Source of the DNA: Enterobacteria phage mEp021
Length of the DNA: 54,655 nucleotides
Strand: one strand, 5' to 3'
Sequence record: MH706966
A program made the position numbers and the translations under genes. Below the pieces are notes generated by a model that searched no databases, was not told the DNA's origin, and saw nothing but the letters and a program-made list of their open reading frames with translations. Positions 2,850-53,028 of the stretch are shown piece by piece (positions within the stretch are counted from its first letter, which is position 1; the number at the start of each line of letters is the position of its first letter).

Positions 2850-3573
2850 GGTTAGATAACGCCTCGTTTATTCTATTTGATGCAATTTCGAAATATTTTT
2901 CATCCTTTTCTATGCCGATAAAACGTCGGTTAGTATTAATGCAGGCAACGCCTGTAGTTCCGCTGCCCATAGTAAAATCGAGAACCGTTTCCCCTTCGTT
3001 AGTGTATGTCTTAATTAGGTATTCCATCAGTGCGACAGGCTTTTGTGTTGGGTGTACCTTGCCTTTCTGGTTTGCGTTACTTATCTCTATAATGCTTTTA
3101 GGGTGCTTATCCTTATAAGTCCTTAAATCACCATAATTAATTATGCGGTTTGCCTCCCCAGCAGAATATGTTTTACCCGTCCTTTCCTTTTGCGGAGTTT
3201 TTATTGGGTAATATTTGACAGCGCCTTTAGAAAAAACAACAACATCCTCATGCACCCTATAAGGTTGCCATTTGAGGACTTGCATGTTACCGCCTTTCTT
3301 CTTGTCCCATACCCAGCAATATTTAAACATGCTTATGTTGCTTGCAATTAGTGTTGTAGTGAACGGCTGACTTGCAGTCATCACAATGGCGCAATTCGGC
3401 TTAACTATGCGCTTTAATTGCTCCCACATTGGATTAAGAGGAATGACGGAATCCCATTTGCAGGCCGTTGTGCCGTAAGGCGGATCAGCCATTACCATAT
3501 CAACGCTACCGCCTGGGATAGAGTTCATGACCTCCAGACAATCACCCAACAATAATGTAACATCTTTATTCAT
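2836..3573 (-). CDS. DNA methyltransferase (N6-adenine/N4-cytosine class, DPPY motif)
   Basis: 245 aa with the catalytic motif VMADPPYGT and an HPTQKP motif, followed by a C-terminal SAM-binding FTMGSGTTG. Confidence 0.85.
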   Translation of the reverse strand: MNKDVTLLLGDCLEVMNSIPGGSVDMVMADPPYGTTACKWDSVIPLNPMWEQLKRIVKPNCAIVMTASQPFTTTLIASNISMFKYCWVWDKKKGGNMQVLKWQPYRVHEDVVVFSKGAVKYYPIKTPQKERTGKTYSAGEANRIINYGDLRTYKDKHPKSIIEISNANQKGKVHPTQKPVALMEYLIKTYTNEGETVLDFTMGSGTTGVACINTNRRFIGIEKDEKYFEIASNRINEALSNHEAN

Positions 3574-3582
3574 TATGTTGCC

Positions 3583-3780
3583 TCATGATACACCGTTACT
3601 ATTTTTCCACTGTGACCGCGCATACATGATCGCCCACAGAGAAATAAGCCTTGAGCTAGACATATAATCGTTTTTGAGTTTTTTCATATCAATAATAACA
3701 GGACTATCAGGATCGTCACCTCGCATGTATTCCGCAATCGTGCTCAAGTCTTCCACGGTCAAATCTAATTCCCTATTCAT
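3583..3780 (-). CDS. Hypothetical protein (65 aa)
   Basis: ORF packed in the minus-strand operon. Confidence 0.45.
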   Translation of the reverse strand: MNRELDLTVEDLSTIAEYMRGDDPDSPVIIDMKKLKNDYMSSSRLISLWAIMYARSQWKNSNGVS

Positions 3781-3789
3781 GGTCGCCCC

Positions 3790-3996
3790 TTACACAATCC
3801 GCATTGTGTTTCGTAATTCACCGCGCAACGCCTGCAAAGCGTAATGAATCGGCACAAAAGCACGGTTAAATTTTACGTGCTTATACTTGCGCATTAGTGG
3901 CGGCGTATAAACCATCGTGCCGCAAGGATCGCATGTGAATTTAAAGTGAGATTCGTCAATAAACGTTTCAACTGAATAAAAAATTACCCGTCTCAT
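3790..3996 (-). CDS. Hypothetical protein (68 aa)
   Basis: ORF packed in the operon. Overlaps the upstream gene by 4 nt. Confidence 0.45.
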   Translation of the reverse strand: MRRVIFYSVETFIDESHFKFTCDPCGTMVYTPPLMRKYKHVKFNRAFVPIHYALQALRGELRNTMRIV

Positions 3997-4586
3997 AATT
4001 CCAACCCCGTTTCCACGTTGAGTTTTTCAATCTCAAATACTGGTTTATCAGGAAGCAGCCCGTTATTTTTACGGTATTCGTTCAGGCGGCTGTCAAAGTC
4101 AAACGCCAAATCATTAGCGTGACCGAATCGCCCAGGTTTAAACAGTGAGTAAAAGTTAACCCCGTGCCTATTTGGATCAACGCAAAGCGTTTCATCAATC
4201 ACCATTAGGCGAAGAGTACGAGAAAGATAATTCCACGGGATACCAGTCTCCGCACTAATGTCACGCATACGCTTTTTAACGCTGTAGTCACCAAATAACG
4301 ACGCAACACGCTCACGACGTTCAGCATATAACTGTTTAATACGATAGCCCAGCAGACGGCGGCGGCGTCCAAAACATGTATATACGCGCTCGACGATACC
4401 GTTTTTTATTAAGTGTTTAATTGTCTCAGGAAGTAACCCATCTTTATCATATCCAGCTAATAACCCCGTTTTATTGCGCAACTGGTGCATTGTTGCGATG
4501 CCATCAAGTTCAAGGATATTGATAACTTTTGTTTCAAGTTCAGCGCTCATTGTTTTTAGCCTCGTTTTAAACGCGATAACAGCCAC
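3993..4586 (-). CDS. Hypothetical protein, possible winged-helix DNA binder (197 aa; alternative start 4550)
   Basis: Long ORF immediately downstream of the helicase. Basic, with an HTH-like segment IATMHQLRNKTGLL. Confidence 0.5.
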   Translation of the reverse strand: MAVIAFKTRLKTMSAELETKVINILELDGIATMHQLRNKTGLLAGYDKDGLLPETIKHLIKNGIVERVYTCFGRRRRLLGYRIKQLYAERRERVASLFGDYSVKKRMRDISAETGIPWNYLSRTLRLMVIDETLCVDPNRHGVNFYSLFKPGRFGHANDLAFDFDSRLNEYRKNNGLLPDKPVFEIEKLNVETGLEL

Positions 4587-4629
4587 CAGAAAGCGGTAAA
4601 CTTTCCGGTAAGCCGTTTGCTCATATTGA

Positions 4630-6045
4630 TTAAAAAGATGCGTTATTCTGGTTGTTTCGTTGGTTAAATCTGCCTGTGCGGTGATTCATAGACTGAATAC
4701 ACGCAGCAGCCGCGCGTGCCTGGTCGCATGGTAAAATGTTGCCGTTATCATCAAACCGCTGGTAAACAGTGCCAGATTTACCATGACGGTTTTTCGATAC
4801 AATGATTTCCATATATTCGCGGGCTACAGACTGCTCATCGTAATATCCATCGCGGTAAACCATGATGATCCTGTCAGCATCTTGTTCAAGGTTCCCGGAA
4901 TCGCGCAGATCTGAATTGTTAGGACGCTTGTTCGGTCGCTCCTCAACGCGGCGTGACAACTGCGCCAGCGCTAACACTGGAACGCGCAATTCTTTTGCCA
5001 TCATCTTCAACGACCATGACAATTGCCCAACAGCGAGATCATGACGTTCAGCCTTAGCCAGCTTCATCAACCCGATGTAGTCAATCATTACCATACCCAG
5101 GTTAGGATGTTCCTGTTTCATCCGTTCCGTGGTGGCGCGTATTTCCTCAACCGTTAACTGCGACGCGTCAACGATCCACACATCAAGATTAGCAAGTGCG
5201 CTCATACCCTTGCCGACATGCGCCCACCCCTCATCATCAAGTTTTACCGGATTACGCAGGCAGTCTGTTGATAAATTACCAGCGCCAGCTATAGCGCGTT
5301 CAGTCATCTGATCGAGTGACATTTCAAGCGTGAAGAACAAAACGCCAACCCGCTGATCTTTACTGCCAGGGTAAGGGCGCTCAGCGGCAGCGCGGGCAAT
5401 TGTCAGCGCCAACGCAGATTTACCAGACCCAGGGCGTCCAGCTAAAAGCACCAAATCAGTAGCGTTAATGCCTCCCAACATCTCATCGAGTGGATCTATC
5501 CCTGTTTTGATGTTGTCAGAATTAACACCGCATTCCATGCGCTTGCTTAAAACGTCCGTATATTCCTGTACCGCATCACGCAACAGAACAGGAATGATCT
5601 TATCTTTCGTTACCTTTAATTTTGAATACCGGGAATCAAAATCTTTCATCGTCTCTTTGACGACCTCAAGCGTCCCCGTCTCCAGTTTGTAGCGCATATC
5701 GTCGATGAGTTCCAACATCTGCCGCCGCTGGTGCTCTTCACGTAGTAGCTGTGCGTATCCCTTCAGGTTGGCAGCAGACGGGCACGATCTCGCCGTTTGC
5801 ATTAGCGGTACAAAGTTTTCGTTGCCAATCTCATCGCCAACCAATAACGCGTCAATAAGATTCCTGTTTCTGGCTTGCGCCCTGATAATTTCAAACGCAC
5901 GTTTATACAGCGGAATCGTGAACACTTCAGGATCAAGAGTGGCGAGAACATCTTGCGCGTTAGGAGTAAGGCCGCCCAACAGCAGCCCACCGATAACTGA
6001 CGCCTCACGTTCCTGCCGTAGTGAGTTTATTTGCTCAGTTACCAT
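4630..6045 (-). CDS. Replicative DNA helicase, DnaB family
   Basis: 471 aa. Walker A motif GRPGSGKSALAL, DnaB-type motifs (LFFTLEMS, DYIGLM, LAQLSR...RPNNSDLRDSG.IEQDAD) and a DnaB-like N-terminal domain. Confidence 0.9.
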   Translation of the reverse strand: MVTEQINSLRQEREASVIGGLLLGGLTPNAQDVLATLDPEVFTIPLYKRAFEIIRAQARNRNLIDALLVGDEIGNENFVPLMQTARSCPSAANLKGYAQLLREEHQRRQMLELIDDMRYKLETGTLEVVKETMKDFDSRYSKLKVTKDKIIPVLLRDAVQEYTDVLSKRMECGVNSDNIKTGIDPLDEMLGGINATDLVLLAGRPGSGKSALALTIARAAAERPYPGSKDQRVGVLFFTLEMSLDQMTERAIAGAGNLSTDCLRNPVKLDDEGWAHVGKGMSALANLDVWIVDASQLTVEEIRATTERMKQEHPNLGMVMIDYIGLMKLAKAERHDLAVGQLSWSLKMMAKELRVPVLALAQLSRRVEERPNKRPNNSDLRDSGNLEQDADRIIMVYRDGYYDEQSVAREYMEIIVSKNRHGKSGTVYQRFDDNGNILPCDQARAAAACIQSMNHRTGRFNQRNNQNNASF

Positions 6046-11166: not shown

Positions 11167-11814
11167 ATGAAAACAAAATGGTATGACTTAGCAAAACAAC
11201 TCATGCGGGCGCAGGGCATGAGCCAGGATTCATTGGCTGATCTTATGGGGATCACAAAAGGCGGCCTTTCTCACTGGCTGAACGGTAGACGTGAGCCAAA
11301 TCTTGAAGATATTGCGCGTATCATGCGGGCGCTTGGGCGTCGGCAGTTCACTGTCACACATGATGGAATGGTCATTGATGATTCTGTTTCTAACACGTTG
11401 CCGGGAGCGCCGCCGCGTGATTTAGGTAGTTACCCGGTTGTTGACTGGAAGGATGTAGTAAACAATATGGAAGATGCAAGGCGATCAACATTACCACACG
11501 TTACGACTAGCGTTATTTGTTCAGATGATAGTTATTGGCTGGTAGCTAAAGGCGAATCAATGAACGCGCCGCAAGGATTGAGTATACCAGCGGGGACGAT
11601 GATACTTGTCGATCCGCACGCGCCAGCTATTGACGGCAAACTGGTTATAGCCCAATTGGAGGAGGGGCAGGTACCGACGTTTAAACAGTTGATTATTGAT
11701 GGAGGTCAAAGACTTTTGCGTTCGCTCAATCCGCTGTATCCGCCAATCCCTATGAATCCAGAATCAAAAATTATAGGCGTGGTGGTTGATGCGAAGATCG
11801 TAAACCTGCCATAA
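11167..11814 (+). CDS. cI: CI-type prophage repressor (XRE HTH + S24/LexA-like autopeptidase)
   Basis: 215 aa. N-terminal HTH MSQDSLADLMGITKGGLSHWLNGRR and a C-terminal S24 domain with AKGESM...K. Divergent from the early operon. Confidence 0.9.
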   Translation: MKTKWYDLAKQLMRAQGMSQDSLADLMGITKGGLSHWLNGRREPNLEDIARIMRALGRRQFTVTHDGMVIDDSVSNTLPGAPPRDLGSYPVVDWKDVVNNMEDARRSTLPHVTTSVICSDDSYWLVAKGESMNAPQGLSIPAGTMILVDPHAPAIDGKLVIAQLEEGQVPTFKQLIIDGGQRLLRSLNPLYPPIPMNPESKIIGVVVDAKIVNLP

Positions 11815-11924: not shown

Positions 11925-11966
11925 TATACAAAATGGATTGACTCTGTATATCACGGGGCGTATATT
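11925..11966 (+). promoter_or_regulatory. pL-like promoter (TTGACT-17-TATATT) with an abutting TATACAAAATGGA word
   Basis: -35 at 11938-11943 and -10 at 11961-11966. The motif at 11925-11937 is directly upstream. The spacer contains ATATCACG, which also occurs in the other early leader. Confidence 0.5.
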
Positions 11967-12317: not shown

Positions 12318-12608
12318 ATGACAGTTACAATCATGTATGGCAAATGTGACAGTAAACTGAATGCCAGGGAACGCAGAAGAATAAAAAGAGAAAACGAAAG
12401 AAAATCATCACCTGCAATTAATAAAACGGACAATGTGGATAAAGCCATTCGCTTTGCAAACGAGGAAAGATGCAAACCCAATGGCATTAAAGAACGTCGC
12501 AAAGGAGCGGTAAAATGGTATACGGAAAATGAAAGCGGCAACTACTACCACGCAACGCAACCACGCCAGTTAGGGGAAAAACCCCTTGATAAAGTCCGCT
12601 ACCATTAA
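12318..12608 (+). CDS. N: N-like transcription antiterminator (arginine-rich motif protein)
   Basis: 96 aa with the RBS AAGGAG. The N-terminal ARM SKLNARERRRIKRENERK resembles the lambda, P22 and phi21 N ARMs. It is the first gene after the pL-like promoter and the nut-like site. Confidence 0.55.
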   Translation: MTVTIMYGKCDSKLNARERRRIKRENERKSSPAINKTDNVDKAIRFANEERCKPNGIKERRKGAVKWYTENESGNYYHATQPRQLGEKPLDKVRYH

Positions 12609-21433: not shown

Positions 21434-21612
21434 AAAACGAAATTAAAGATCTGCAAATAGATATTCAGCGCGACGAGCTTGATTTAGCTACAGTCAGGCA
21501 AATCCAGGCTTTCCACATGAGAGAATTGCTTGCGCTGAAAGAGCTTGAAAGAAAGTTGGTCCAGTCAATATCTGATCGCAAAAGACTGGTTGCGCGTTAC
21601 GGGGGTAAATAA
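21430..21612 (+). CDS. Hypothetical coiled-coil protein (60 aa)
   Basis: Coupled ORF between rusA and Q. Confidence 0.45.
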   Translation: MKNEIKDLQIDIQRDELDLATVRQIQAFHMRELLALKELERKLVQSISDRKRLVARYGGK

Positions 21613-22334
21613 TGAATTTGGAATCTATTCTTAAATTCCATTTCCCAAAGTCACCGCGTTTGTCAGATGAAAGCCGTGGAACATCACCTGATGCACTTAA
21701 TACTACTGATGCACTAACCGCCGCAGGTATGGCGCAATCTCGCGTAGAGCTTGGATATAGCGCTTTTTTAGGGAAGATGGAACTATCACAAGCCGAAAAA
21801 CATAAGGCCGTAGTTTTGCTTATAGAGCGTTTAAAGGCTATGGCAAAAGATTATAAATACGTTATGGAACTGGACGAGGCACAACGCAATGATCTCATTA
21901 TTCTTGTTGCCGTTTTTGCGTTTCGGGATTATTGCCAGAGTGCCGCGACGGAAAAAACTTGCATGGAGTGCGGCGGATATAAATTTACGTTTGACGAATA
22001 CGGTGAAAAACACCTTTGTAAAAAATGCAAGGGGCATGGGACAGTTCGCAATCATTGTAAACAATGCAAGGGCCGTGGCGAAGTACCGGACAAAGCAGCC
22101 AGCGAAGCGACGGAAATGCCAGTATTCAAAACGTGCCAGCATTGCGGCGGGCGCGGTTACTCGCGTTTCCCAGTAGATCTTGTTCGGCAGGCGGTTAATC
22201 AGCTTGTTTTCCCTGTAAGCCGATCAACATGGTGGAAGAAATACAGGGTTTTCTATGAAGACGCCATAGTGGAGCTATTCAAAGAAGAATCTCGCGCGGA
22301 AAGCGAAATCAAACGAGTGACACGGGGTGAATAA
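21612..22334 (+). CDS. Q: Late-gene antiterminator Q (Zn-finger type, phage 82/21-like)
   Basis: 240 aa immediately after rusA. DnaJ-like CxxCxGxG repeats (CKKCKGHG, CKQCKGRG, CQHCGGRG), as in one Q family. Confidence 0.65.
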   Translation: MNLESILKFHFPKSPRLSDESRGTSPDALNTTDALTAAGMAQSRVELGYSAFLGKMELSQAEKHKAVVLLIERLKAMAKDYKYVMELDEAQRNDLIILVAVFAFRDYCQSAATEKTCMECGGYKFTFDEYGEKHLCKKCKGHGTVRNHCKQCKGRGEVPDKAASEATEMPVFKTCQHCGGRGYSRFPVDLVRQAVNQLVFPVSRSTWWKKYRVFYEDAIVELFKEESRAESEIKRVTRGE

Positions 22335-28918: not shown

Positions 28919-30310
28919 ATGTATTCAGGAGTAAACATTATATTGCGTTTATTAGATTTGGCGGTTAATGCTGCCTTGTCACAACGTCAGGCGGCCTATG
29001 CCCGCTATGCAGCCGCCAACCCATTCACTATGGGGATAGATGCCAAACGAGATACTGCATGGAGTGAATACGGATTCAAGGAAGAAATCACGTATGACGA
29101 CCTGTACAAACTGTATAGACGCGGTGGTATTGCTCACGGTGCTATTGAGAAAATCATCACGACTTGCTGGCGCACCAGGCCAACGATGATCGAGGGAACA
29201 GAAGACGAGAAAGCGGAAACGGAAACACCCTGGGAAAGAGACATCAAGAAACAGTTTGATAACAGATTTTGGCGCACCATTGCCGAATGTGACCGCCGCC
29301 GCCTCATTGGTCGTTATGCTGGCCTGTTGATTCATGTCAGAGATAGCAAGCCGTGGGATCAGCCAGTGACAAAAGGCGTGGGTATTGCCAAATTTACCCC
29401 GGTATGGGCTGGCGCTCTCACACCGAAGGAGTTCGAAGAAGACCCTAACAGTGAAAACTATGGCCTGCCTACATGGTGGGAATACAAAGAGCGCATAAAC
29501 AGCAAGACCATTGCCAGAAAGATCCACCCTGACCGCATATTTATCTTTGGTGACTATTCTGATGATGCCATCGCCTTCCTTGAACCGTCCTATAACGCCT
29601 TTGTGTCACTTGAGAAAGTGGAAGGCGGTAGCGGTGAATCATTCCTGAAAAACGCTGCCCGCCAGTTAGCTATCTCGTTCGATAAAGAGATTGACTTCCG
29701 CTCCCTTGCTGCAACATACGGATGCGACGTCACAGAGCTACGCGAAAGATTCAATGAGGCTGCGGCTGAAATGAATAAGGGTAACGATGTGATGATGGCA
29801 TTACAGGGGGCGACAGTAAGCCCGCTGGTGACTGCCGTATCTGACCCGTCGGCAACCTATGACGTCAACCTGCAAACCGCCGCCGCTGGTATTGATATTC
29901 CAACCCGCATCCTGGTTGGGAACCAGCAGGGGGAACGCGCATCAACCGAAGACCTCCGCTACTTCAACAGTCGCTGCATGACCCGCAGGGAGGAAATCGG
30001 GGGTGAGCTTGAAGATCTGTTTCGCAAGATGGCAGATCTCCGCCTTATCAGTATGCCAGTCGATGTATCAGTTTTATGGGACGACCTGAACGCCATGACC
30101 AAAGCCGAACTACTGGAAGCGGCATACAAAATGGCACAAATCAATCAGGCTTGTCTGGCTACTGGTGAAGAAATATTTAGCGGTGATGAGATCCGCGAGG
30201 CTGCCGGATACGATGGCCCTGCCAGTGTAGTAGAAACGGAAGAGGAAAACGATGATGAAGGTGAAGAAGATAATCAGGCGAATACCTCCAGCCGCGATAA
30301 TGCCATCTAA
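28919..30310 (+). CDS. Portal protein (start codon uncertain)
   Basis: 463 aa directly after terminase, with an acidic C-terminus. Resembles DUF1073-type portals from memory. Confidence 0.8.
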   Translation: MYSGVNIILRLLDLAVNAALSQRQAAYARYAAANPFTMGIDAKRDTAWSEYGFKEEITYDDLYKLYRRGGIAHGAIEKIITTCWRTRPTMIEGTEDEKAETETPWERDIKKQFDNRFWRTIAECDRRRLIGRYAGLLIHVRDSKPWDQPVTKGVGIAKFTPVWAGALTPKEFEEDPNSENYGLPTWWEYKERINSKTIARKIHPDRIFIFGDYSDDAIAFLEPSYNAFVSLEKVEGGSGESFLKNAARQLAISFDKEIDFRSLAATYGCDVTELRERFNEAAAEMNKGNDVMMALQGATVSPLVTAVSDPSATYDVNLQTAAAGIDIPTRILVGNQQGERASTEDLRYFNSRCMTRREEIGGELEDLFRKMADLRLISMPVDVSVLWDDLNAMTKAELLEAAYKMAQINQACLATGEEIFSGDEIREAAGYDGPASVVETEEENDDEGEEDNQANTSSRDNAI

Positions 30311-36293: not shown

Positions 36294-36319
36294 GGGGCCA
36301 TTTGGCCCCTTTATTTTTT
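36294..36319 (+). terminator. Rho-independent terminator after the major tail gene
   Basis: GGGGCC-ATTT-GGCCCC followed by TTTATTTTTT. Confidence 0.7.
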
Positions 36320-36331
36320 ATGGTGACAGTT

Positions 36332-37012
36332 ATGATTCATGTTCGAACCGGACAATTTGCGGTCGTTGTTGATGGCAGACGTTACGAGTTCAACCCATGC
36401 TTTGCTGCAATGGCTAAGATCGGCAGTGACAGGGAACTGGTTGAATATTTCGCAACTGTGCACGGTGGCAAATACCCACAGCGTTTGCCAACGGATCCAG
36501 ACCTCCGCAATCGCATTATGGCGCGTTGTTATGGTGAGTTAGTGCAAACGTCCATCCACGTCCTGAAATGTTGCTCAGAATGCGAAATAGGCCAGTTATT
36601 GGGCGAATGCAGCTTTACTCCTTCGGGTAAGTTGAGACTGAAACCTGGGTTGATGCCCACCAGCGACGTTATCACACTGGCGCAACACTGCATGTATCAC
36701 GGTTTGATTGGTGACGGACCAGATGAGGACACTGGCGAGGAGCAGGAAGGAGACTATAAACAGACGTTTGACATCCTTGAATACGTTTACTCCGCTGTTG
36801 CTCACCTGGGATTGTCTGAATCTGAAGCATGGGGCATGACAATGACCGGATACAGGGCCGCTGTACGCGCTAAAACGCCACCAGACGAAAGAAACGAGAA
36901 ACGTAAGCCAAACGTTCATATAAATAAACGTGATTATGATGAGCAAATGGAGGCAGCTAAAAGGGTGCTGGAATTGATGAAAAAACGCGAGCAAGAAAAA
37001 GCCCGGGGTTAG
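36332..37012 (+). CDS. Tail assembly chaperone (start 36320 or 36332)
   Basis: Lies between the major tail and tape measure genes. Acidic middle and basic tail. Confidence 0.5.
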   Translation: MIHVRTGQFAVVVDGRRYEFNPCFAAMAKIGSDRELVEYFATVHGGKYPQRLPTDPDLRNRIMARCYGELVQTSIHVLKCCSECEIGQLLGECSFTPSGKLRLKPGLMPTSDVITLAQHCMYHGLIGDGPDEDTGEEQEGDYKQTFDILEYVYSAVAHLGLSESEAWGMTMTGYRAAVRAKTPPDERNEKRKPNVHINKRDYDEQMEAAKRVLELMKKREQEKARG

Positions 37013-37052
37013 CCGGGCGTTATATGTCGATGATGCTTTTTGATGGTGCCAA

Positions 37053-37469
37053 TTATCTGAACCTTGCTATTTCAATTCTGCCGTTGCCCAAGTCAATGAT
37101 GGCATGATTTTTTATACCCGCGCCGCCTTCGTTAAATATTCTTTCAGCAAATGCGGCTTTATCAGCGTTACACTCATTGGCTATTCTGTTTCTTATTTCA
37201 TCGTTGCCTTCGAATACGACGCCTACAGCAGCCTCCTTCACAAGTCCCCAGTTAAACCATCTTGCGTAAACCGGTTTACCTTCGAAATGATCGTCAATTG
37301 CTTTATAAAAAACCTTGATAGCTGCGGGTTCCTTCTTGAAGATTTTGTGGTATTCGGCAACATTATTAGCTACATCATCGCAGTTTATATTCATCACATC
37401 GTTTGCGTTGGCGTTGAATGCTAAACCTACCATTACCGCCATCACTGCCGCTTTGATTAGCCGTTTCAT
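37053..37469 (-). CDS. Secreted (Sec signal peptide) accessory protein, 138 aa
   Basis: MKRLIKAAVMAVMVGLAFNANA signal with an AxA cleavage site. It is on the opposite strand inside the tail operon. Confidence 0.65.
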   Translation of the reverse strand: MKRLIKAAVMAVMVGLAFNANANDVMNINCDDVANNVAEYHKIFKKEPAAIKVFYKAIDDHFEGKPVYARWFNWGLVKEAAVGVVFEGNDEIRNRIANECNADKAAFAERIFNEGGAGIKNHAIIDLGNGRIEIARFR

Positions 37470-37482
37470 ACCCCACCCCCGC

Positions 37483-37569
37483 TTATTTTTTGTTTTTAAG
37501 TGCCTTCAGCATTTCTTCGATAAAGTCGGCATAGTGCTCATGCTCGTTGGGTCGGTAGTAGTTTTTCAT
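37483..37569 (-). CDS. Possible 28-aa hydrophilic peptide MKNYYRPNEHEHYADFIEEMLKALKNKK
   Basis: Not in the track. RBS AGAGGATAAGAAAATG. Lies 13 nt upstream of the secreted-protein gene. Confidence 0.35.
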   Translation of the reverse strand: MKNYYRPNEHEHYADFIEEMLKALKNKK

Positions 37570-37725
37570 TTTCTTATCCTCTTTGCTTCCTCCGGTTAAT
37601 CCGACCTTCTAAATCCCTTTACTCTATCCCTTTCCTTTAGCCTCTTTATACAAAATGTATTCGTTGAAGTGAAGCCATTTTGTATAAAATAGAGATCAGT
37701 ATCACACTTTTTACGAGGTTAAATC

Positions 37726-40071
37726 ATGTCCACCAGTTTAGGTACAATTTATTACGAAGTTGATGCAAAAACTGGTCAACTTCTAGTCGCTCAGAGACAG
37801 GCGGATCAGGCTTTTGACAGTATCGAGCGTGGCGCAAAACGCGCTGACCGCCAGGTTAACACGCTTAAAACTTCAATCAAAGCACTATCCAGGGTTATAC
37901 ATCTGCTACTTGCTGCGGAGGCTGTGCGCCAGTTTATTGACATGGCGGAGCAAGCAAAAATGCTTCGTGTCAAAATTAAAATGCTCACAGGTGACGCAGA
38001 GGCCGCAGGACGTGTTTTTGACGGCCTGAAAAAAATATCAAAGGAAACCGGGCAAAGCCTTAAAGACACTGGCGAATTGTGGCAAGGCCTGGCTATTTCA
38101 CTAAAGAATACTTCCGCTACGGAAGGCCAATTGCTCAACCTGGTTGGCACTATTCAGAAGATGGGGGCGTTAGGAGGCGCGTCAGCGGAACAGATGTCTA
38201 ATTCTATGCGCCAGTTCCGCCAGTCTATAGACGGCGGCGTGCTGCGTGCTGAAGAGTTTAACAGCCTGTTAGAGAACACGCCGACCATCGTACAGACAAT
38301 GGCCCGCCATATGGGGTTGTCAATGGGCCAGTTCCGCGCCGAAATGCTGGACGGCAAGATCACGGCTGAAAGGATGGTTAACGCGATTCAGGCAGCTACA
38401 CAGGAAACAAACGAGAAGTTTGCACAGTTGCCGCGCACGTCCGGCAAGGCTATCAATGAGCTTAAAGTTGAGGTGATGGGGCTTGTCGAACAACTTGACG
38501 ATCTTTTCGGCATATCAGATGGCGTTGTATCAGCTATCGACTTAATAACTGGCGGCGTTGAGGGATTAGGTAAAGGCGCTAAATTCGCCGCAACCTGTTT
38601 TAATACACTCAAAACGGCTGGCAGTGAGTTCATAGACATGTTTGACGACGTGGCTGTTAAGGCTGGCGAGGTGGCGGAAGAAATCATTAGAATGGTAACG
38701 CCAATCAAGGCGCTAATGGATGGCTACAAATGGATGAAGGAGATTGTAGGAAAGCAAACAGAAGAATATAACACCAATTATGAGAAGAAATACGGTAAAA
38801 GACTTGGTAAGGGAATGCAATTTTGGGATGATTGGCAGGCCGTACTTAACCAAACAAAAGAAAACAAGGGAACCGACACCGCTGACGACGGCAAGATCAC
38901 CGGATTCGAGCCACCAGTAGATAAGCCAGGAAAACCGAAAAAAGGAAAAAAAGACAAGAAATCTGAAGCTGATCGGCTTGGTGATGAAGGTATAAAAGTG
39001 TCCGACCAGTACAACAAGGACGCCGCCGCTATGCGCAAAGCATTAGAGAACGGCAAGGCCATTGATGCTGCATTCGCCCAGGGCAAAATCACCCTCCTTG
39101 AGTACAAGGCCGCGCAAAAGGGGATAGGCAAGGAACTGAAGGACGAATTGGCACAAATCCCGGTGGAAGAATTGCAAGATAAATGGGCGCACATAGTAAG
39201 CCCAATGGATCAGCTTAAGGGCGAAATTGACCCAATCAAACAGGCGCAGAATGAGTGGGCTGTCAGAAAACAAATGCTATTAGACCTGGGAGCTACAGAA
39301 GCGCAACAGAGACAGGCGCAGTTAGAATATGAGCAACAGATCAGGGATCTGAAGTGGGAGCAATGGCAGGCGCAAAGCGACACAAACAGCCTGATTGGTG
39401 CTTGTGTTAGCGGCCTCAAGGGTGGCATGGGTAATGCGCTTACTGGCCTGTTAAACGGTACTCAATCATTAAGCGAGGTTTTTGCCAACCTGGGAAGCAG
39501 CATACTTAACACCGTAGGCAATAAACTTTCGGAAATAGCCGCTAACTGGATAGCAGATCAATTGATGATGGAAACGCAAAGCAAGGCTACACAGGCAAGT
39601 ACAGCGGCTGGCGCTGTGGCAGCGCAGGGCGAGATTGCTGCGGCAGCGGCCCCGGCAGCGGCTGCGACGGCGGCATCAACTGGCGGTAGCTGGGCGGCGG
39701 CTGGTGCTGCGGCGCTTTCTGCTATCATGTCGCTGGCAACGTCAATTTTTGGCGGCGGTCGTTATAATGGTGGTTCTGTGAATGGTGGCAGTCTGTATCG
39801 CGTAGGGGAACACGGAATACCGGAGCTATTCCAGACGAGCAACGGGCGTCAGTATATGATTCCTGGGGAAAATGGCAGGGTTATTCCTGGCCGCGATCTT
39901 TTCAGTGGTGGCAGCATCAGTATGCCTGTTAACATTACCGTTCAGACCACAAACGGGTTTAGCGAAGAGGACAGTCGCAGATTGCAAGACGCCATGAAAC
40001 GCGTTGCAATGGGAGTAATTAAAGAGCAAAGTTCAAGGCCCGGAGGTCTTATCCAACCACGAAGAAAATAA
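37726..40071 (+). CDS. Tape measure protein
   Basis: 781 aa, largely helical, with a Gly/Ala-rich hydrophobic segment near the C-terminus. Confidence 0.9.
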   Translation: MSTSLGTIYYEVDAKTGQLLVAQRQADQAFDSIERGAKRADRQVNTLKTSIKALSRVIHLLLAAEAVRQFIDMAEQAKMLRVKIKMLTGDAEAAGRVFDGLKKISKETGQSLKDTGELWQGLAISLKNTSATEGQLLNLVGTIQKMGALGGASAEQMSNSMRQFRQSIDGGVLRAEEFNSLLENTPTIVQTMARHMGLSMGQFRAEMLDGKITAERMVNAIQAATQETNEKFAQLPRTSGKAINELKVEVMGLVEQLDDLFGISDGVVSAIDLITGGVEGLGKGAKFAATCFNTLKTAGSEFIDMFDDVAVKAGEVAEEIIRMVTPIKALMDGYKWMKEIVGKQTEEYNTNYEKKYGKRLGKGMQFWDDWQAVLNQTKENKGTDTADDGKITGFEPPVDKPGKPKKGKKDKKSEADRLGDEGIKVSDQYNKDAAAMRKALENGKAIDAAFAQGKITLLEYKAAQKGIGKELKDELAQIPVEELQDKWAHIVSPMDQLKGEIDPIKQAQNEWAVRKQMLLDLGATEAQQRQAQLEYEQQIRDLKWEQWQAQSDTNSLIGACVSGLKGGMGNALTGLLNGTQSLSEVFANLGSSILNTVGNKLSEIAANWIADQLMMETQSKATQASTAAGAVAAQGEIAAAAAPAAAATAASTGGSWAAAGAAALSAIMSLATSIFGGGRYNGGSVNGGSLYRVGEHGIPELFQTSNGRQYMIPGENGRVIPGRDLFSGGSISMPVNITVQTTNGFSEEDSRRLQDAMKRVAMGVIKEQSSRPGGLIQPRRK

Positions 40072-40089
40072 TTTATTGATTTAATCTTA

Positions 40090-40123
40090 CGCCCGCAAGA
40101 TAATGACGTATCCTTGCGGGCTT
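40090..40123. terminator. Bidirectional hairpin terminator between the tape measure gene (+) and the minus-strand island
   Basis: GCCCGCAAG-N13-CTTGCGGGC followed by TTTGCTT. Confidence 0.65.
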
Positions 40124-40126
40124 TGC

Positions 40127-41461
40127 TTACGCGGCTTTTATAATTTCTTTATACTTATCTTCCACCATGTTAAAAACCTCTGGTCTGTAGTAGAAAAATT
40201 CGCAACTACCATCAAATTTTACTGGGAAGTTAATTTTGTAATTATTAAGGGTTTTGTGTATCGCGCCTTCTAGTTCATAGATATTTTGTGTCGGACCTTC
40301 TAATGTTTTTACGATATGCAAATCAGGAATCGTTACACCCGCTTTATGTGCGCTACTTAGTATTCTATTTCTTCGTTCGTTTTCCTTAACACTTACCCCT
40401 ACTTTCATTAGCGTTGGTACTTCCAGATCGTCAACCATGATATAAAGTTTGCCGCGTTCGTAGGATAAAAAACCCTTTTTAGCACATTTAGAACAGCCGC
40501 TACCTTCCTTAAGTTTTTGCGGCGTGGTTCGCCACTTATAACCACACACTTTACATAAACACGATACTTTGTTTTTATTCCCTGTTATTTTACCTACCAC
40601 TTTGATATTAGGGTTGATGTTGGCAATGGCTTTTACTTGCTCATCATGTGATATTCTTCGTGCTTGCGATCCTTTTCGTTTCGCACACTTCGGGCAACCA
40701 GTACCTTTTTTAAGGCTGGCTGGAGTAGTTAACCACTCATGACTGCAAGACTTACAGCGGCATAACGTTCTCGTAGTATTGTTAATAATTTTTTCTAATA
40801 CCTCAACGCTAGGACTGGTTTTCGCAATAACTGCAATTTGTTCTTCATGTGATAGTTTGGTGTGTCCGCTACATTTCGGGCAGCCAGTACCATGCTTGAT
40901 GTTGTTGGGAGTTGCTGGCCATTCATGATTGCAAATCTTACATTTGCATAATACTTTTTTTAAACTCGCAGATTAAAAGGGGTTTTATTCAATATTGCTG
41001 TTAACCTTCGCAATAGCTGCAACTTGTTCTTCATGCGTTAATCTTCTATCTGCGCATTTTGGGCAACCTTGCCCGATTTTAAGTGTTTCAGGTCTAGCCA
41101 ACCATTCATGATCACAAACTTTGCAATGGCATAATACCTTTGTTTTATTATTAATAATTACCCCTAACACCTTAATATCAGGATTAACTTTAGCAATAAT
41201 TGCAACCTGTTCTTCGTGTGGTAATGCCCGTTTTTGTGCTCTTTTTAACGCCGCACATTTAGGGCAACCAACACCGCGCTTAAGATCAGCAGGTCTACCA
41301 AACCATTCGTGATTACAAGTTTTGCAGCAGCATGATACTTTTTCCATATTCCCGGTAATTACCCCTATCACCTCGATATTGGGGTTAACTTTTGCAATAG
41401 CGGCAACTTGTTCTTCGTGTGTTAATTTTTTTGTCATAATACCGCTCCTACAATCTTCCAT
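40127..41461 (-). pseudogene. Second Zn-ribbon-array/T5orf172 paralogue (five modules), interrupted by two in-frame TAA codons
   Basis: One 445-codon frame. The track ORFs 40985-41461 and 40127-40600 are its two ends. Stops are at 40985-40987 and 40973-40975, and there is no start codon for the 120 codons in between. Confidence 0.65.
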
Positions 41462-41547
41462 TCCGTCCTACATAACTCCTGCCGAACATTACCAACCAGA
41501 TGCTCCAGATCTCCCGCCATGTGTATTTCTCATTCTTCATACCCGCC

Positions 41548-41802
41548 TCACTTATGAGCGCCTTTTACGCCACATAACTTGTTATAAAAATGGTGCTCAA
41601 CGATTAACCAAACCCTCAGATCTTCACTGAACAGCCGCCAATCAGGATTAATGTCAAACTTCCAGCCATAACCATCGCGTAACTTTTTGGGGTTGGCCTC
41701 TTTCTTCAGGAAAGCATTTAATAAGGCTTTTCCCTTTTTGATGATCCGGTCCTGTGCGTTTTTCTGTGCTTTCAGGTTTTTACCAATCGCCACCAATTTC
41801 AT
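41548..41802 (-). CDS. Basic 84-aa protein (weak RelE/ParE-like look)
   Basis: Trimmed to the ATG with RBS GGGGTGG. ...KKLRDGYGWKFDINPDWRLFSEDLRVWLIVEHH. Confidence 0.5.
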   Translation of the reverse strand: MKLVAIGKNLKAQKNAQDRIIKKGKALLNAFLKKEANPKKLRDGYGWKFDINPDWRLFSEDLRVWLIVEHHFYNKLCGVKGAHK

Positions 41803-41820
41803 AATCCACCCCGCAATCAA

Positions 41821-41976
41821 TTAGTTGACCACTTTCAGGAAGAAATCACAGTATTCATCTTCTTTTGCATTCATCATGAACTGACCGTATTTGAATGCGT
41901 CATCAAAGCCTTTTACAATCGCCACTTCCACCTGTTCGAATGCGTTGTTCAGCATTACCACTACATAGCGTTTCAT
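41821..41976 (-). CDS. Acidic 51-aa protein
   Basis: Trimmed to the ATG with the strong RBS AAGGAGGGG. Its stop is 18 nt upstream of the next gene's start. Confidence 0.45.
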   Translation of the reverse strand: MKRYVVVMLNNAFEQVEVAIVKGFDDAFKYGQFMMNAKEDEYCDFFLKVVN

Positions 41977-42042
41977 GATGCCCCTCCTTTGTTGGTACTG
42001 CTTTCTCTTCTTGCCTCCTATATACATCTTGTTACGTCATGT

Positions 42043-42071
42043 GTGAAGCCATTTTGTAAACTGGGTATAAT
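42043..42071 (+). promoter_or_regulatory. Candidate restart promoter for gpM (TATAAT at 42066-42071) overlapping GCCATTTTGTAAA
   Basis: Consensus -10 hexamer but a poor -35 (GTGAAG). The motif copy lies in the spacer. Confidence 0.3.
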
Positions 42072-42146
42072 TCTTGTGACGAAGTTCTCATTTTTCGCGT
42101 AGAAGCGCGTAAAGATGTATGCAATATGTAACTTATAGGGGGAATC

Positions 42147-42500: not shown

Positions 42501-42511
42501 TGGGGGTTAAT

Positions 42512-42697
42512 ATGTACGGGACTTGTGTAGTGGACAAAACTGACGCTTTTACATTGTTTGACGACTACGAGATCAACGACCTTACTGTAAAGGCTGACAA
42601 TGGCGATACATGGTATCTTCATGATGTTGGTGATGGTTATGTGGGATGCAGATCCAGAGAAGGCAAGGAGGTTTTATTTTTGGTTGATGGCGTATAA
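42512..42697 (+). CDS. Hypothetical protein (61 aa)
   Basis: Trimmed to the ATG with RBS TGGGGG. Followed by a terminator. Confidence 0.45.
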   Translation: MYGTCVVDKTDAFTLFDDYEINDLTVKADNGDTWYLHDVGDGYVGCRSREGKEVLFLVDGV

Positions 42698-42703
42698 TAA
42701 CAA

Positions 42704-42724
42704 CCCCGCTTCGCGCGGGGTTTT
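42704..42724. terminator. Bidirectional hairpin terminator
   Basis: CCCCGC-TTCGC-GCGGGG followed by TTTTCTT. Closes both the plus-strand and the converging minus-strand units. Confidence 0.65.
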
Positions 42725-42728
42725 CTTG

Positions 42729-42866
42729 TCAGTAGTTAATGTACATCAAACTCATTGGGTGAGCGTGCGCCATATTATTGGCTATCGCCGCCCAGTCCCA
42801 ATCGGCAGCATGAACGCCAAATACTATCAGTCCCATTATTATTAGCGCCAAAACTTCTATTTTCAT
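42729..42866 (-). CDS. Small 45-aa protein with an N-terminal hydrophobic signal/TM segment
   Basis: Not in the track. RBS AGGTGA. MKIEVLALIIMGLIVFGVHAADWDW... Confidence 0.35.
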   Translation of the reverse strand: MKIEVLALIIMGLIVFGVHAADWDWAAIANNMAHAHPMSLMYINY

Positions 42867-42876
42867 AATCTGTCAC

Positions 42877-43125
42877 CTATAAGTTATCACGCAGGTAATT
42901 AACGCCCTTATCAGTGACGAATGAATGGTTTACCTGGTTTTCATCCGTCATGATGATGAATAACTTTTCCTGTAGGTATTTCGCTTTCGGGTACAGTGTT
43001 AAACAGACCTGGTACAGTATCCCGCGCTCAATCAGCAAATCAATAAATTCGTGCTCATGATAACCGATAAGGCGGGCGGCCTGTTTCAACGTGTACACAT
43101 AGTCACCGTGATTACGCCGTGCCAT
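42877..43125 (-). CDS. 82-aa protein with an HTH-like segment
   Basis: Trimmed to MARRNHGDYVYTLKQAARLIGYHEHEFIDLLIERGIL (MerR/AlpA-like helix-turn-helix look). Confidence 0.5.
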   Translation of the reverse strand: MARRNHGDYVYTLKQAARLIGYHEHEFIDLLIERGILYQVCLTLYPKAKYLQEKLFIIMTDENQVNHSFVTDKGVNYLRDNL

Positions 43126-43135
43126 GATTTTATTC

Positions 43136-43369
43136 TCACATATCAAAAAATAGCATGTCAGGTATAAAAGTATCGCCGCAAGAATTTCCATATCCTTTTA
43201 CCGTACTACCATCAATATCAATCACTGTGAGCGGCACAAAATTTAAACAGTCATCGACAGTGAAACGGCTGCCAGAAGGTGTAATGAATAATGGGTATCT
43301 ATTTTTTATATTAAAATCATCATTTTTGTTAGATGTAACAACGAGTTTGATAACACCTATCATCTTCAT
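43136..43369 (-). CDS. Hypothetical protein (77 aa), AT-rich gene
   Basis: ORF in the minus-strand cassette. Confidence 0.5.
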   Translation of the reverse strand: MKMIGVIKLVVTSNKNDDFNIKNRYPLFITPSGSRFTVDDCLNFVPLTVIDIDGSTVKGYGNSCGDTFIPDMLFFDM

Positions 43370-43384
43370 ATATCGGCCTACACT

Positions 43385-43738
43385 TTATTTGCCATTAAAA
43401 CAGCCCAGGTTATCTATGCAGAAGTCTTTTGCCGCTTTTTCGTATTCGCGTTTTGCTTCCGGATCGTCAGCTGGAAAACCTTTTGCGTGTATTTCTCCAG
43501 GGCAAGATTGATCCATAGAATCAGCAAATTCAACATTGACGTTAAAGTTAATATCTTTCGGGTTCATCTCTTCCACCTTATCCGGTACTTGGACCGGAGT
43601 AATATCAAAATCACGATAGTTAAACCCACAGCGAAGTAATTCACGACCTTCATCACGCGCCGCAGCATATGTGTCAAATAGGCCCATGCGTTCCCATCCG
43701 CATTTATTAGTAAACACGTCTAAACTGTATTTTTGCAT
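43385..43738 (-). CDS. Hypothetical protein (117 aa), acidic, several Cys
   Basis: ORF in the minus-strand cassette. Confidence 0.55.
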   Translation of the reverse strand: MQKYSLDVFTNKCGWERMGLFDTYAAARDEGRELLRCGFNYRDFDITPVQVPDKVEEMNPKDINFNVNVEFADSMDQSCPGEIHAKGFPADDPEAKREYEKAAKDFCIDNLGCFNGK

Positions 43739-43750
43739 TTTGTTAACCTC

Positions 43751-43906
43751 TCATTTGACGGGTTCGATCTCGTACCCCAAAACGCGTTCGTCTTCAGCAA
43801 GTAAAAGCGCGTCAACCAGCGCATCGCCTTCATCTTTATACAGGGCCACAAGCATTTCCCTGCCATCAGCCAGGAACACCGTCAACCTCCACACCTTATC
43901 ATCCAT
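43751..43906 (-). CDS. Acidic 51-aa protein, first gene of the cassette
   Basis: Trimmed to the ATG with RBS GGAGGTG. A motif copy lies directly upstream. Confidence 0.45.
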   Translation of the reverse strand: MDDKVWRLTVFLADGREMLVALYKDEGDALVDALLLAEDERVLGYEIEPVK

Positions 43907-43987
43907 CGCACACCTCCGCGCCATTTTGTTAACCCTGCTTCCTTTTGAGTACAATATACATATTGTAAAAAGCGCTATCAACCGTTT

Positions 43988-43996
43988 TGGTATGAT
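43988..43996 (+). promoter_or_regulatory. Extended -10 element TGGTATGAT upstream of gpL
   Basis: Fits the TGnTATnAT pattern, fused to a CCGTTTTGG word. Confidence 0.3.
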
Positions 43997-44033
43997 TTAG
44001 CGTGACGTAGATCACAAATTGCAAGGTGATAAA

Positions 44034-51700: not shown

Positions 51701-51740
51701 CCACTGTTGCCCCGCCAAATGGTTGGGGCAACTAATTTTA

Positions 51741-52676
51741 TTAATAAATTACTGGCAAATAAGGAAGATTCATACCTATACAGAAATCCGGCCTGTTACC
51801 TATTTCATACCTGACAATCCTTGATCCTGTTCCGCTTTTCACCTGCCCGTTGTACATCATAATGCCTTTGTATCTTAGTTCCTTGTATGCTGATATAGCT
51901 CTAGTATTAAAGCCGCATCTCAATATTGGGAAGAACGCGTCACCTATTGTCTGGTAACTATTCGATAACGCTATAAATCCCTTAACAACCAATGGCCTTT
52001 GTTTTGTTGAAAACACGCATTGATTATTTTTATTAATGATGGTTATTCCGTCGCCAGGTGATGGCGGTGATTTGCTAAAAATAGCCAAATTCATCGTTAC
52101 CGATCCATATGTGTCACCAGTTGCAGAAGTGTTTGTGTTTGTACAGATCAATTTATTGTTTCCGTCAAACTCAACTGAAACACCGCTATTGCTCCAGTTA
52201 CCGAAAGGAACACCGGCAACTGGCATAGTGTAAGAACCATTAAAGCTAACACTCCCAACCCATAAACATGACATCAATGTATCGTTAGTCGTTATCGATG
52301 CAAAATCTGTGCTATCTGCAACTAATATACCCTCACCAGTAGACGCCTTTGCTATCTCAAACACGCTACCGCTAAAATTAGTGATCCTATCAGAATATGC
52401 GTTCTCACCACTAATTGAAATCCTTGCCGTGCCACCAGAAGCACTAAAGCCTGATATAAAATATGTTTCAACACCCCTGTCAAGCTCAAACGCGTAAGCG
52501 CCTACCTTTGGGATTAGAAACTTATCGCCGCCAGTTAAATCCTTTATGGAAAAACTTTGCGAAAACCCAGCATTTTGAATATTGAAATCTCCAGCGTGTG
52601 AGAACGCACGCAACCCGCTTGTTATTTCCATTGCAGGGCGTCCGTCATTCAGCCCAATATATATACCCGCCCCCAT
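51741..52676 (-). CDS. Beta-rich 311-aa protein of unknown function
   Basis: Trimmed to the ATG overlapping the lipoprotein stop (TAATG). Ser/Gly/Thr/Asn-rich with no signal peptide seen. Confidence 0.6.
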   Translation of the reverse strand: MGAGIYIGLNDGRPAMEITSGLRAFSHAGDFNIQNAGFSQSFSIKDLTGGDKFLIPKVGAYAFELDRGVETYFISGFSASGGTARISISGENAYSDRITNFSGSVFEIAKASTGEGILVADSTDFASITTNDTLMSCLWVGSVSFNGSYTMPVAGVPFGNWSNSGVSVEFDGNNKLICTNTNTSATGDTYGSVTMNLAIFSKSPPSPGDGITIINKNNQCVFSTKQRPLVVKGFIALSNSYQTIGDAFFPILRCGFNTRAISAYKELRYKGIMMYNGQVKSGTGSRIVRYEIGNRPDFCIGMNLPYLPVIY

Positions 52677-52894
52677 TAGTACCACTCCTTACTTCCGCAA
52701 TCTCTAGTCTTGCCACTATGACCATCAGTGCCATCATAAACGCGACAGATCTCACCGGACGGAACCTTAGCCCCGTCAACCCATCTTTCATAGCAGACAC
52801 CGTATGCGCTAGTTGCACAATGGCCGTTGTGTCGATTAGTGTCAGCGCAACCAACCAGAATAGCCGCAACAGCGATAATTGTTACCATTTTCAT
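52676..52894 (-). CDS. Small Cys-rich lipoprotein (72 aa), Cor/Llp-like position
   Basis: MKMVTIIAVAAILVGC lipobox, RBS GGGGTG, and six further Cys in the mature part. Confidence 0.65.
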   Translation of the reverse strand: MKMVTIIAVAAILVGCADTNRHNGHCATSAYGVCYERWVDGAKVPSGEICRVYDGTDGHSGKTRDCGSKEWY

Positions 52895-52986
52895 TAGTAC
52901 ACCCCACTCAGATTGTGTGTATTTGTTGCTTTGTTTATTATAATATACATTTTGTATAAGCATAAAATGCAACATAGATCACAAAA

Positions 52987-52995
52987 TGGTAGAAT
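52987..52995 (+). promoter_or_regulatory. Extended -10 element TGGTAGAAT upstream of the side tail fibre gene
   Basis: Fused to a CACAAAATGG word. The ATG is 34 nt downstream and has a GGAG RBS. Confidence 0.35.
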
Positions 52996-53028
52996 TATTC
53001 CGTTAATTAACATAATGGAGTCATTGCG

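Follow-up and report, generated by a model that had tools for sequence, protein, structure and literature searches.

Enterobacteria phage mEp021 carries, between two of its tail genes, a short unit that is read on the opposite strand, and the question raised by this locus is what the unit is and what its products may do. The sequence analysed here (record MH706966; 54,655 nucleotides, hereafter the window) is that of a temperate Escherichia coli siphophage or prophage which is mEp010-like and belongs to the mEpimmI group. Over positions 36300-38300 it shares 93% identity with phage mEp010 and 98% with a prophage of E. coli GN05505. A first-pass annotation had described two minus-strand open reading frames (ORFs), encoding a 28-aa peptide and a 138-aa protein with a Sec signal, wedged between a tail chaperone gene and the tape measure (TMP) gene. 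Both ORFs are found exactly where it placed them (Table 1); the upstream neighbour is a DUF6246 gene. The unit is very probably a moron cassette encoding an exported protein, and the DUF6246-TMP junction in mEpimmI-type phages is a conserved cargo hot-spot.

The length of the ORFs alone means little, since a 106-aa ORF is open on the strand opposite the 138-aa ORF. Among 11 unique homologous DNAs, the ratio of nonsynonymous to synonymous differences (pN/pS) of the 138-aa ORF is 0.21 in the claimed frame versus 1.56 in the long open antisense shadow frame. For the 28-aa ORF the ratio is 0.11 (pS 0.51, pN 0.057; 16 unique DNAs), and this ORF shows many synonymous changes as well as an in-frame codon indel (NYY versus NVNY). 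Judged by this substitution pattern, both ORFs are protein-coding genes under purifying selection, and in the peptide it is the amino-acid sequence, not translation alone, that is selected. Plausible ribosome-binding sites precede both of them, the peptide having the good site noted in the first-pass annotation (AAGAGGATAAGAAA-ATG) and the 138-aa ORF having TAAGCGGGGGTGGGGT-ATG. That the ORFs have no function, and are either frames open by chance or remnants decaying within non-coding spacer DNA, is a very improbable reading. PGAP misses the 28-aa ORF, and both strands hold several open and overlapping ORFs of similar length, but the reading is already contradicted by the strong and frame-specific purifying selection. 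The signal peptide, the cysteines and the length of the 138-aa protein are moreover kept down to 67% identity, its AlphaFold2 model is confident, and the peptide is kept, synonymous changes included, ahead of differing cargos.

The slot was compared in six sequenced relatives, in RefSeq prophages, in 20 IMG/VR contigs and in contigs with divergent DUF6246 genes. A minus-strand cassette is present in every locus having a complete DUF6246-TMP interval (39/39). In a distant DUF6246 phage (L043/L044), where the DUF6246 protein is 36% identical, the DUF6246 gene (2056-2697) and the TMP gene (2690-5494) overlap by 8 nt and there is no insert. Because DUF6246 overlaps TMP directly in that phage, the cassette is an insertion relative to the ancestral junction, that is, a moron. 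The first-pass assumption that the junction is normally uninterrupted thus fits the distant phage, but not the lineage itself. The GC content is 0.42 in the 138-aa gene, 0.38 in the peptide gene and 0.35 in the intergenic region, compared with 0.49 in the DUF6246 gene and 0.50 in the TMP gene. The unit shows the testable features of the phage moron as defined by Hendrix and Juhala, as it lies between genes that are adjacent in relatives, has a deviant GC content and carries its own terminator; the first-pass assignment to this category is upheld.

The terminator is an intrinsic one, found 35 nt past the stop codon of the 138-aa gene and overlapping the stop codon of the DUF6246 gene. Its hairpin, GCCCGG-CTAACC-CCGGGC (37018 to 37001), has a 6-bp stem composed of G:C pairs only and is followed by TTTTTCTT (RNA tail UUUUUCUU). 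Read on the plus strand the hairpin has no T-run. The annotation of mEp010 also has ARNold terminators at this position.

The cargo of the slot varies. It consists of the 138-aa protein, with or without a 124-aa BamE-like lipoprotein, of a 35-aa protein and a 100-aa membrane protein, of unrelated secreted proteins of 116 or 119 aa, of a 219-aa lipoprotein of the VasI/TagO family (PF11319, E=7.5e-17) with either the 124-aa lipoprotein or a 106-aa protein, or of a 59-aa membrane protein and a lipoprotein. The most divergent members have a cytoplasmic-looking first gene of 60 or 91 aa followed by exported proteins. Lipoboxes are found in the VasI-like protein (LVGC) and in the 124-aa protein (LTGC/IAGC). 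Since the alternative cargos are mostly exported or membrane-bound, the slot seems to be reserved for accessory genes whose products act on the envelope.

The signal peptide MKRL[IA]KA...AFNANA is near-identical on the unrelated mature domains of the 138-aa and 116-aa proteins, and the VasI-like lipoprotein begins likewise. This implies that recombination breakpoints lie inside the region encoding the signal peptide. Aligning the 138-aa family with the 119-aa cargo of mEp515 by hhalign matched the signal peptides only, and the mature domains were not detectably related. The peptide gene and the signal are often retained while the mature domains differ, and the cargo is therefore swapped between a conserved 5' module and the conserved terminator at the 3' end of DUF6246. 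The secreted 116- and 119-aa cargos, whose signal peptide is almost that of the 138-aa protein, were seen in L008 (E. coli strain 127; 1447-1797), L015 and L005 (mEp515; 3233-3592). In one divergent relative (L048) an extra antisense membrane-protein gene (3508-3876, minus strand), similar to the 100-aa cargo of the DUF6246-TMP slot, separates the tail tube gene from DUF6246; cargo therefore moves between neighbouring slots.

Seventeen homologues of the 138-aa protein were found, all from E. coli or Caudoviricetes; the family alignment holds 16 homologues with 67-93% identity. Judged by inspection, the protein is predicted to carry a conserved and cleavable Sec signal for signal peptidase I (SPase-I) of a textbook pattern, which bears out the clear Sec signal of the first-pass annotation. 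The signal comprises residues 1-22 (37404-37469) with the layout MKR / LIKAAVMAVMVGLAF / NANA↓N and predicted cleavage at AFNANA↓N, leaving a mature part of 116 aa (37056-37403). The n-, h- and c-regions and the A-x-A motif are kept in all homologues, the residues of the h-region changing conservatively. There is no Cys at +1 and no lipobox of the type [LVI][ASTVI][GAS]C, the first Cys being residue 30. Two homologues (P0011 and P0012) have AFNANANA and AFNANANANA instead of AFNANA at alignment columns 19-22, and these expansions of the NA dipeptide suggest slippage on an AAYGCN repeat.

Cys30 and Cys100 are invariant across the homologues, and the family displays long invariant blocks such as FEGKP.YA.WFN.GLV and NRIANEC. 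The AlphaFold2 model of the mature part (predicted local distance difference test score 85.7, predicted template modelling score 0.78) has five helices and a three-stranded sheet formed by an N-terminal strand and a C-terminal hairpin. As in the first-pass annotation, which had recognised no motif, neither the 138-aa protein nor the peptide gave anything above noise in Pfam, PHROGs or NCBIfam, and PADLOC-DB contains no family matching either of them at E ≤ 1. A search of the PDB by sequence with the 138-aa family profile found nothing. A profile search of 1.84 billion cluster representatives gave only the family itself and some eukaryotic repeat proteins, which were inspected and rejected as spurious. 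The Foldseek comparison proposed in the first-pass annotation found no related fold, the best E being 0.37 against BFVD and 2.4 against the PDB with a better model of the mature protein. The gene order TMP / (29 aa) / 137-138 aa / DUF6246 recurs in each of the ten genomic contexts (10/10) of the homologues P0010 and P0003. The 138-aa protein thus appears to represent an orphan family found in this slot only.

These properties bear on two other functions that the protein might have. It could be a periplasmic immunity protein or inhibitor directed against envelope toxins, such as type VI secretion system (T6SS) amidase, muramidase or lipase effectors, colicins or lysozymes, and would then act as an 'orphan immunity' factor aiding the lysogen in bacterial competition. 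A small, soluble, Sec-exported and helical protein with two cysteines has the general build of many periplasmic immunity proteins, and cargos found in the slot elsewhere include the T6SS-associated VasI/TagO lipoprotein (PF11319) and BamE-like lipoproteins. However, no immunity or inhibitor family was matched by sequence or fold, no toxin gene adjoins the cassette, and VasI/TagO counts as an accessory protein with no established role and is not known to confer immunity. Ivy, PliC/MliC, PliI and PliG, the known lysozyme inhibitors, have beta-rich folds, whereas the model of the 138-aa protein is a five-helix bundle with a small sheet. Its lack of a match to these families by sequence (Pfam, NCBIfam) or by fold speaks against the lysozyme inhibitor put forward in the first-pass annotation, and an immunity or inhibitor function as a whole is considered unlikely.

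A lysogenic-conversion factor that serves the fitness or virulence of the host and is unconnected with phages or toxins is given about the same low probability. Such a factor might act in envelope-stress tolerance, serum resistance or adhesion, in the manner of lambda Bor and Lom, with which the cassette has the moron architecture and the envelope location in common (PMC3594210). The phages are prevalent in the human gut and in clinical E. coli (PMC11893012), the listed hosts include blood and faecal isolates, and the diverse cargo of the slot would fit general 'accessory' traits. On the other hand, a soluble periplasmic protein is predicted and not a surface-exposed one like Lom or Bor, its family is found in this phage lineage and slot only, without homologues on chromosomes or pathogenicity islands, and no known virulence domain was found in it.

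The 28-aa peptide has neither a signal peptide nor a transmembrane segment, while its C-terminal stretch is amphipathic. Variants of 27-29 aa head the cassette before at least four unrelated cargo types and are missing in a few loci. By tblastn the peptide is confined to mEpimmI phages. A degenerate DNA pattern for it, run against the GTDB species representatives, gave a lone match inside a Bacteroidaceae AraC-like gene, which was judged to be due to chance.

The features of the locus are collected in Table 1. The 5' leader of the cassette, which is ~45 to 190 nt long in the relatives, shows no unusual structure when folded (z = +1.6), and a search of 36800-37900 against Rfam found no RNA family.

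Table 1. Coordinates of the cassette, its signals and the flanking genes in the window (SD, Shine-Dalgarno sequence).
Feature	Position	Strand	Basis and details
DUF6246 gene (left flank)	36332..37012	+	PF19759 E=5e-58, phrog_791
Intrinsic terminator of cassette	36993..37018	-	Terminator scan and RNA folds of both strands
138-aa protein gene	37053..37469	-	ORF list; starts MKRLIKAAVMAVMVGLAFNANA
Inter-ORF spacer	37470..37482	-	Read from sequence; carries the SD-like GGGGGTGGGG of the 138-aa gene
28-aa peptide gene	37483..37569	-	ORF list; product MKNYYRPNEHEHYADFIEEMLKALKNKK
Purine-rich 5' leader of cassette	37570..37644	-	Peptide SD AAGAGGA; small CCGG-ATTAA-CCGG hairpin
Conserved inverted repeat	37645..37688	.	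TTTATACAAAATG (37645-37657)-N18-CATTTTGTATAAA (37676-37688); 13-nt arms
Tape measure (TMP) gene (right flank)	37726..40071	+	PF20155 TMP_3 E=2e-51; phrog_1538 tape measure E=2e-146

Between the cassette and the TMP gene there is a conserved inverted repeat. The right arm and the AATAGA that follows it are invariant in 20/20 loci, which had been collected without reference to the repeat, while the left arm varies in one subgroup (the P0010 group) without compensating changes. Each arm contains an outward-facing -10-like box. On the cassette side TATAAA is found 17 bp downstream of the -35-like hexamer TTCACT, and the boxes on the TMP side are TATAAA/TAAAAT, with TGTATAAAAT as the conserved promoter-like sequence. 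In the divergent relative L045, a different sequence that includes a perfect TATAAT stands in place of the TMP-proximal arm. Relatives without the peptide have ~45 nt between the repeat and the start of the cargo, which leaves the repeat as the only place for a promoter. The repeat could thus be a pair of divergent promoters, or equally a site for binding of a protein or regulator.

The same region might also be seen as an RNA hairpin. In the plus-strand RNA, UUUAGCCUC (37636-37644) can pair with GAGGUUAAA (37716-37724), which contains the SD of the TMP gene (GAGG at 37716-37719, in the ribosome-binding site ACGAGGTTAAATC-ATG), and this pairing extends the hairpin of the repeat. The extended hairpin has a minimum free energy of -22.9 kcal/mol (z = -4.1), and its base could sequester the SD. 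The pairing has no support from covariation, and mismatches are found in some relatives. An RNA-hairpin reading of the repeat was dropped, as the repeat folds well but the changes in the left arm are uncompensated and the SD side never varies; because of these uncompensated changes it is read as a DNA element. The first-pass annotation had held that the TMP gene needs 37570-37725 as a restart region. Since its start follows a 713-nt gap, the gene clearly needs a translation start of its own, while a transcriptional restart is only suggested by the conserved promoter-like sequence. The TMP gene may or may not need a transcription start of its own, since a Q-type antiterminator (PF03589) is encoded upstream at 21612-22334.

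The first-pass annotation had further placed two copies of a dispersed word in this region, one of them as a perfect palindrome. The two copies are indeed there and are the arms of the one inverted repeat. Neither is a perfect palindrome; ATACAAAATGTAT has 5-nt inverted ends around a central AAA. The 9-mer core ATTTTGTAT occurs eight times in the window (2377, 11926, 12608, 20145, 30124, 37648, 37677 and 52949) versus 1.24 copies expected, a 6-fold enrichment. Regions 42040-42060 and 43925-43960 were listed together with the positions of the word. The region upstream of the TMP gene and the one upstream of the next tail gene (42147) both contain a 16-mer, GTGAAGCCATTTTGTA. Another word that recurs, GATCACA(A/T)AATGG, was seen close to where the L-like and side-fibre genes start and also upstream of ninG. 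The dispersed word was rejected as a cI/cro operator, since the immunity region has other palindromes and no clear copies of it. Scans for sigma-70 promoters in the other restart regions gave no more matches than shuffled sequence did. A promoter-like TTGACT-17-TATATT is found at ~11938-11966, directly after one of the copies.

The repeat, together with the regular presence of the cassette, touches on the proposal that the unit serves the lytic cycle of the phage, as an early or late periplasmic accessory in the timing of lysis, in protection against lysis from without or in conditioning of the envelope for release. The cassette is kept in all complete slots (39/39), so that the slot as such could be needed, and the conserved repeat is common to the upstream regions of the cassette and of the TMP gene, making co-regulation possible. 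Unrelated cargos replace each other, however, as is typical of accessory genes that can be dispensed with rather than of a core function in lysis; moreover, convergent late transcription would hinder the cassette, which runs antisense to the late operon, and a complete holin-endolysin-spanin module is encoded elsewhere. A role in the lytic cycle is even less probable than the immunity and conversion functions discussed above.

The same junction is occupied in HK97 by gene 15, the archetypal moron, a superinfection-exclusion gene and the first moron to be named (PMC3594210). This gene separates the tail chaperone gene from the TMP gene, and its expression in the prophage prevents the injection of genomes (summarised in PMC3594210 after Juhala et al. 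2000 and Cumby et al. 2012). Like gene 15, the mEpimmI cassette is a tail-operon insert exactly between the chaperone-position gene and the TMP gene, a seemingly autonomous unit with a product predicted to go to the envelope, absent in related phages whose flanking genes are adjacent. The two also differ in several respects. HK97 gp15 is the product of a single gene, a YebO-like inner-membrane protein with an uncleaved transmembrane helix, while the cassette contains two genes, one for a cytoplasmic 28-aa peptide and one for a 138-aa protein predicted to be soluble and exported by Sec, and shows no sequence similarity to gp15 or YebO. No YebO-like or gp15 sequence was found in the 138-aa protein (no Pfam match above noise), its N-terminus is predicted to be cleaved off and its mature part to be soluble. 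Unlike HK97 gene 15, the cassette runs antisense to the late operon, and rotating cargo fills the slot in every member of the lineage.

How the cassette might work can be pictured as follows. Leftward transcription would start from a promoter in the left arm of the repeat (TTCACT-17-TATAAA) and, because the cassette is antisense to the late operon, would take place mainly in the lysogen, where the late genes are silent. The terminator would then keep antisense transcripts from running on into the tail genes. In the lytic phase, late transcription modified by Q would pass through the region on the plus strand, and the TMP gene would be translated from its own SD. The 138-aa protein would be exported by Sec and cleaved after ANA, and the mature 116-aa helical protein would reside in the periplasm, probably with a disulfide bond. 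There is an even chance that it modifies or protects the envelope of the lysogen, giving it an envelope-protective role of some kind. The single most likely specific role is superinfection exclusion at the periplasmic stage of genome injection, but this is a tentative guess. It is made by analogy, because HK97 gp15 shares the junction and acts against TMP/tail-mediated entry of DNA. The exclusion factor suggested in the first-pass annotation is thereby still the best guess among its proposals, with analogy as its basis.

Several observations weigh against this account. A strict sigma-70 scan of 37570-37725 gave no promoter, which also bears on the transcriptional restart of the TMP gene; the proposed -10 box lacks the conserved final T, and the -35 box matches at 4/6 positions. 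HK97 gp15 is membrane-anchored and YebO-like and not soluble in the periplasm. The exclusion demonstrated in mEp010 belongs to the lipoprotein gp116 (PMC11893012), so that a second exclusion factor is not required. The type of cargo does not obviously track the type of TMP, as TMPs of ~780 aa are found with several cargos. Taken as a whole, a self-contained moron cassette at an mEpimmI hot-spot, with an envelope-protective function as the guess, is the best explanation, and it has roughly equal odds of being right or wrong.

Other known systems resemble the cassette in part. The classical lambdoid morons, such as bor and lom of lambda, are extra genes in or near the late or tail region with their own promoter and terminator, deviant GC content and envelope products expressed from the prophage (PMC3594210). 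The cassette shares with bor and lom the location as an extra gene, the deviant GC content, the terminator and a predicted envelope product. Bor is a lipoprotein and Lom an outer-membrane beta-barrel, however, while the 138-aa protein has neither a lipobox nor a predicted beta-barrel and no homology to them. In the mEpimmI phages, the lipoproteins Lpp021 (mEp021 gp81) and Lpp010 (mEp010 gp116), encoded inside the tail cluster, have been shown experimentally to exclude related phages (PMC11893012). These have in common with the 138-aa protein the phage family, the location in the structural cluster and the nature of an exported envelope protein, which for the 138-aa protein is a prediction. The Lpp proteins and those of the Cor/Llp type carry a lipobox, while the 138-aa protein has the SPase-I site ANA↓N, and the Lpp genes are found at a different locus from the cassette (mEp010_97 versus gp116). 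The paper on the mEpimmI phages contains nothing on the DUF6246-TMP slot (PMC11893012), and no informative paper on 'DUF6246' was found in the literature.

The variable loci of P2 and P4 are accessory-gene hot-spots of temperate phages and satellites. Like these, the slot has a fixed position and conserved bounds, and unrelated cargos replace each other by recombination. It differs from them in that its cargo is mainly exported or membrane-bound and does not consist of cytoplasmic defence systems, and in that a micro-ORF, and sometimes a signal peptide, is kept in the 5' module.

The genes surrounding the cassette give some further context. The DUF6246 gene comes after the tail terminator and tail tube genes. 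The ORF finder places its start at a TTG at 36302, while annotated relatives begin at the equivalent of 36332, which was used here. In RefSeq prophages its counterpart is labelled 'DUF6246 family protein'. The protein matched no named chaperone family in Pfam or PHROGs and has no relative in the PDB, and both PF19759 and phrog_791 are described as 'unknown function'. The first-pass annotation was right that the gene is found upstream of TMP; its label 'tail chaperone' is inferred from the position after the tail tube gene and from the way the gene abuts TMP in L043.

The tail module is split by at least four minus-strand islands (37013-37725, 40072-42146, 42501-44018 and 51701-53028) with GC contents of 0.40-0.42 versus 0.47-0.51, unlike the contiguous tail operon of lambda. 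The DUF6246-TMP cassette is the first of these, and the RefSeq prophage of GN05505 has the same island-broken layout. In the island after TMP, two minus-strand genes (40127-40600 and 40985-41461) encode T5orf172, DUF4379 treble-clef zinc-finger and CapR-homology domains, which are types known from conflict or defence systems, and a ParE-like toxin gene occupies the same position in relatives. At the position expected for the portal gene, between the genes for a terminase-like packaging protein and a minor head protein, 28919-30310 (= L011 12571-13941) has been named 'anti-CBASS protein Acb1 family protein' by PGAP in a near-identical RefSeq prophage, which may be a mis-annotation or reflect a fused domain. 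Downstream of a CI-like repressor gene (11167-11814; helix-turn-helix and S24) a plus-strand ORF at 12318-12608 encodes an arginine-rich protein of 96 aa that looks like the N-type antiterminator described for mEp021 (PMC11893012).

In its architecture the locus is nothing unusual for a phage, being a moron in the classic position of HK97 gene 15. Both this type of element and the site it occupies are familiar, while the 138-aa family and the micro-ORF are undescribed as far as the consulted sources show. The conserved 28-aa protein represents an unannotated small gene overlooked by PGAP. A more far-reaching proposal, and a doubtful one, is that the slot is a dedicated 'envelope-effector platform', where periplasmic, lipoprotein and inner-membrane domains are shuffled behind a fixed regulatory repeat, a conserved micro-protein of 27-29 aa and a reusable signal peptide. 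It would then be a diversifying exclusion or defence locus directed against the TMP-mediated periplasmic step of injection, with the 138-aa protein as a soluble injection blocker of a new fold and the micro-protein as its regulator or partner.

Should the 138-aa protein turn out to act in exclusion or immunity, a soluble periplasmic and structurally unmatched family would join a field consisting mostly of membrane proteins and lipoproteins, and the protein would offer a way into the periplasmic stage of siphophage DNA injection, which is poorly understood. The slot is a natural and well-bounded site for cargo in a group of phages common in the human gut, and with its conserved 5' module of putative promoter region, micro-ORF and signal peptide it can conveniently serve to catalogue accessory proteins that act on the envelope.

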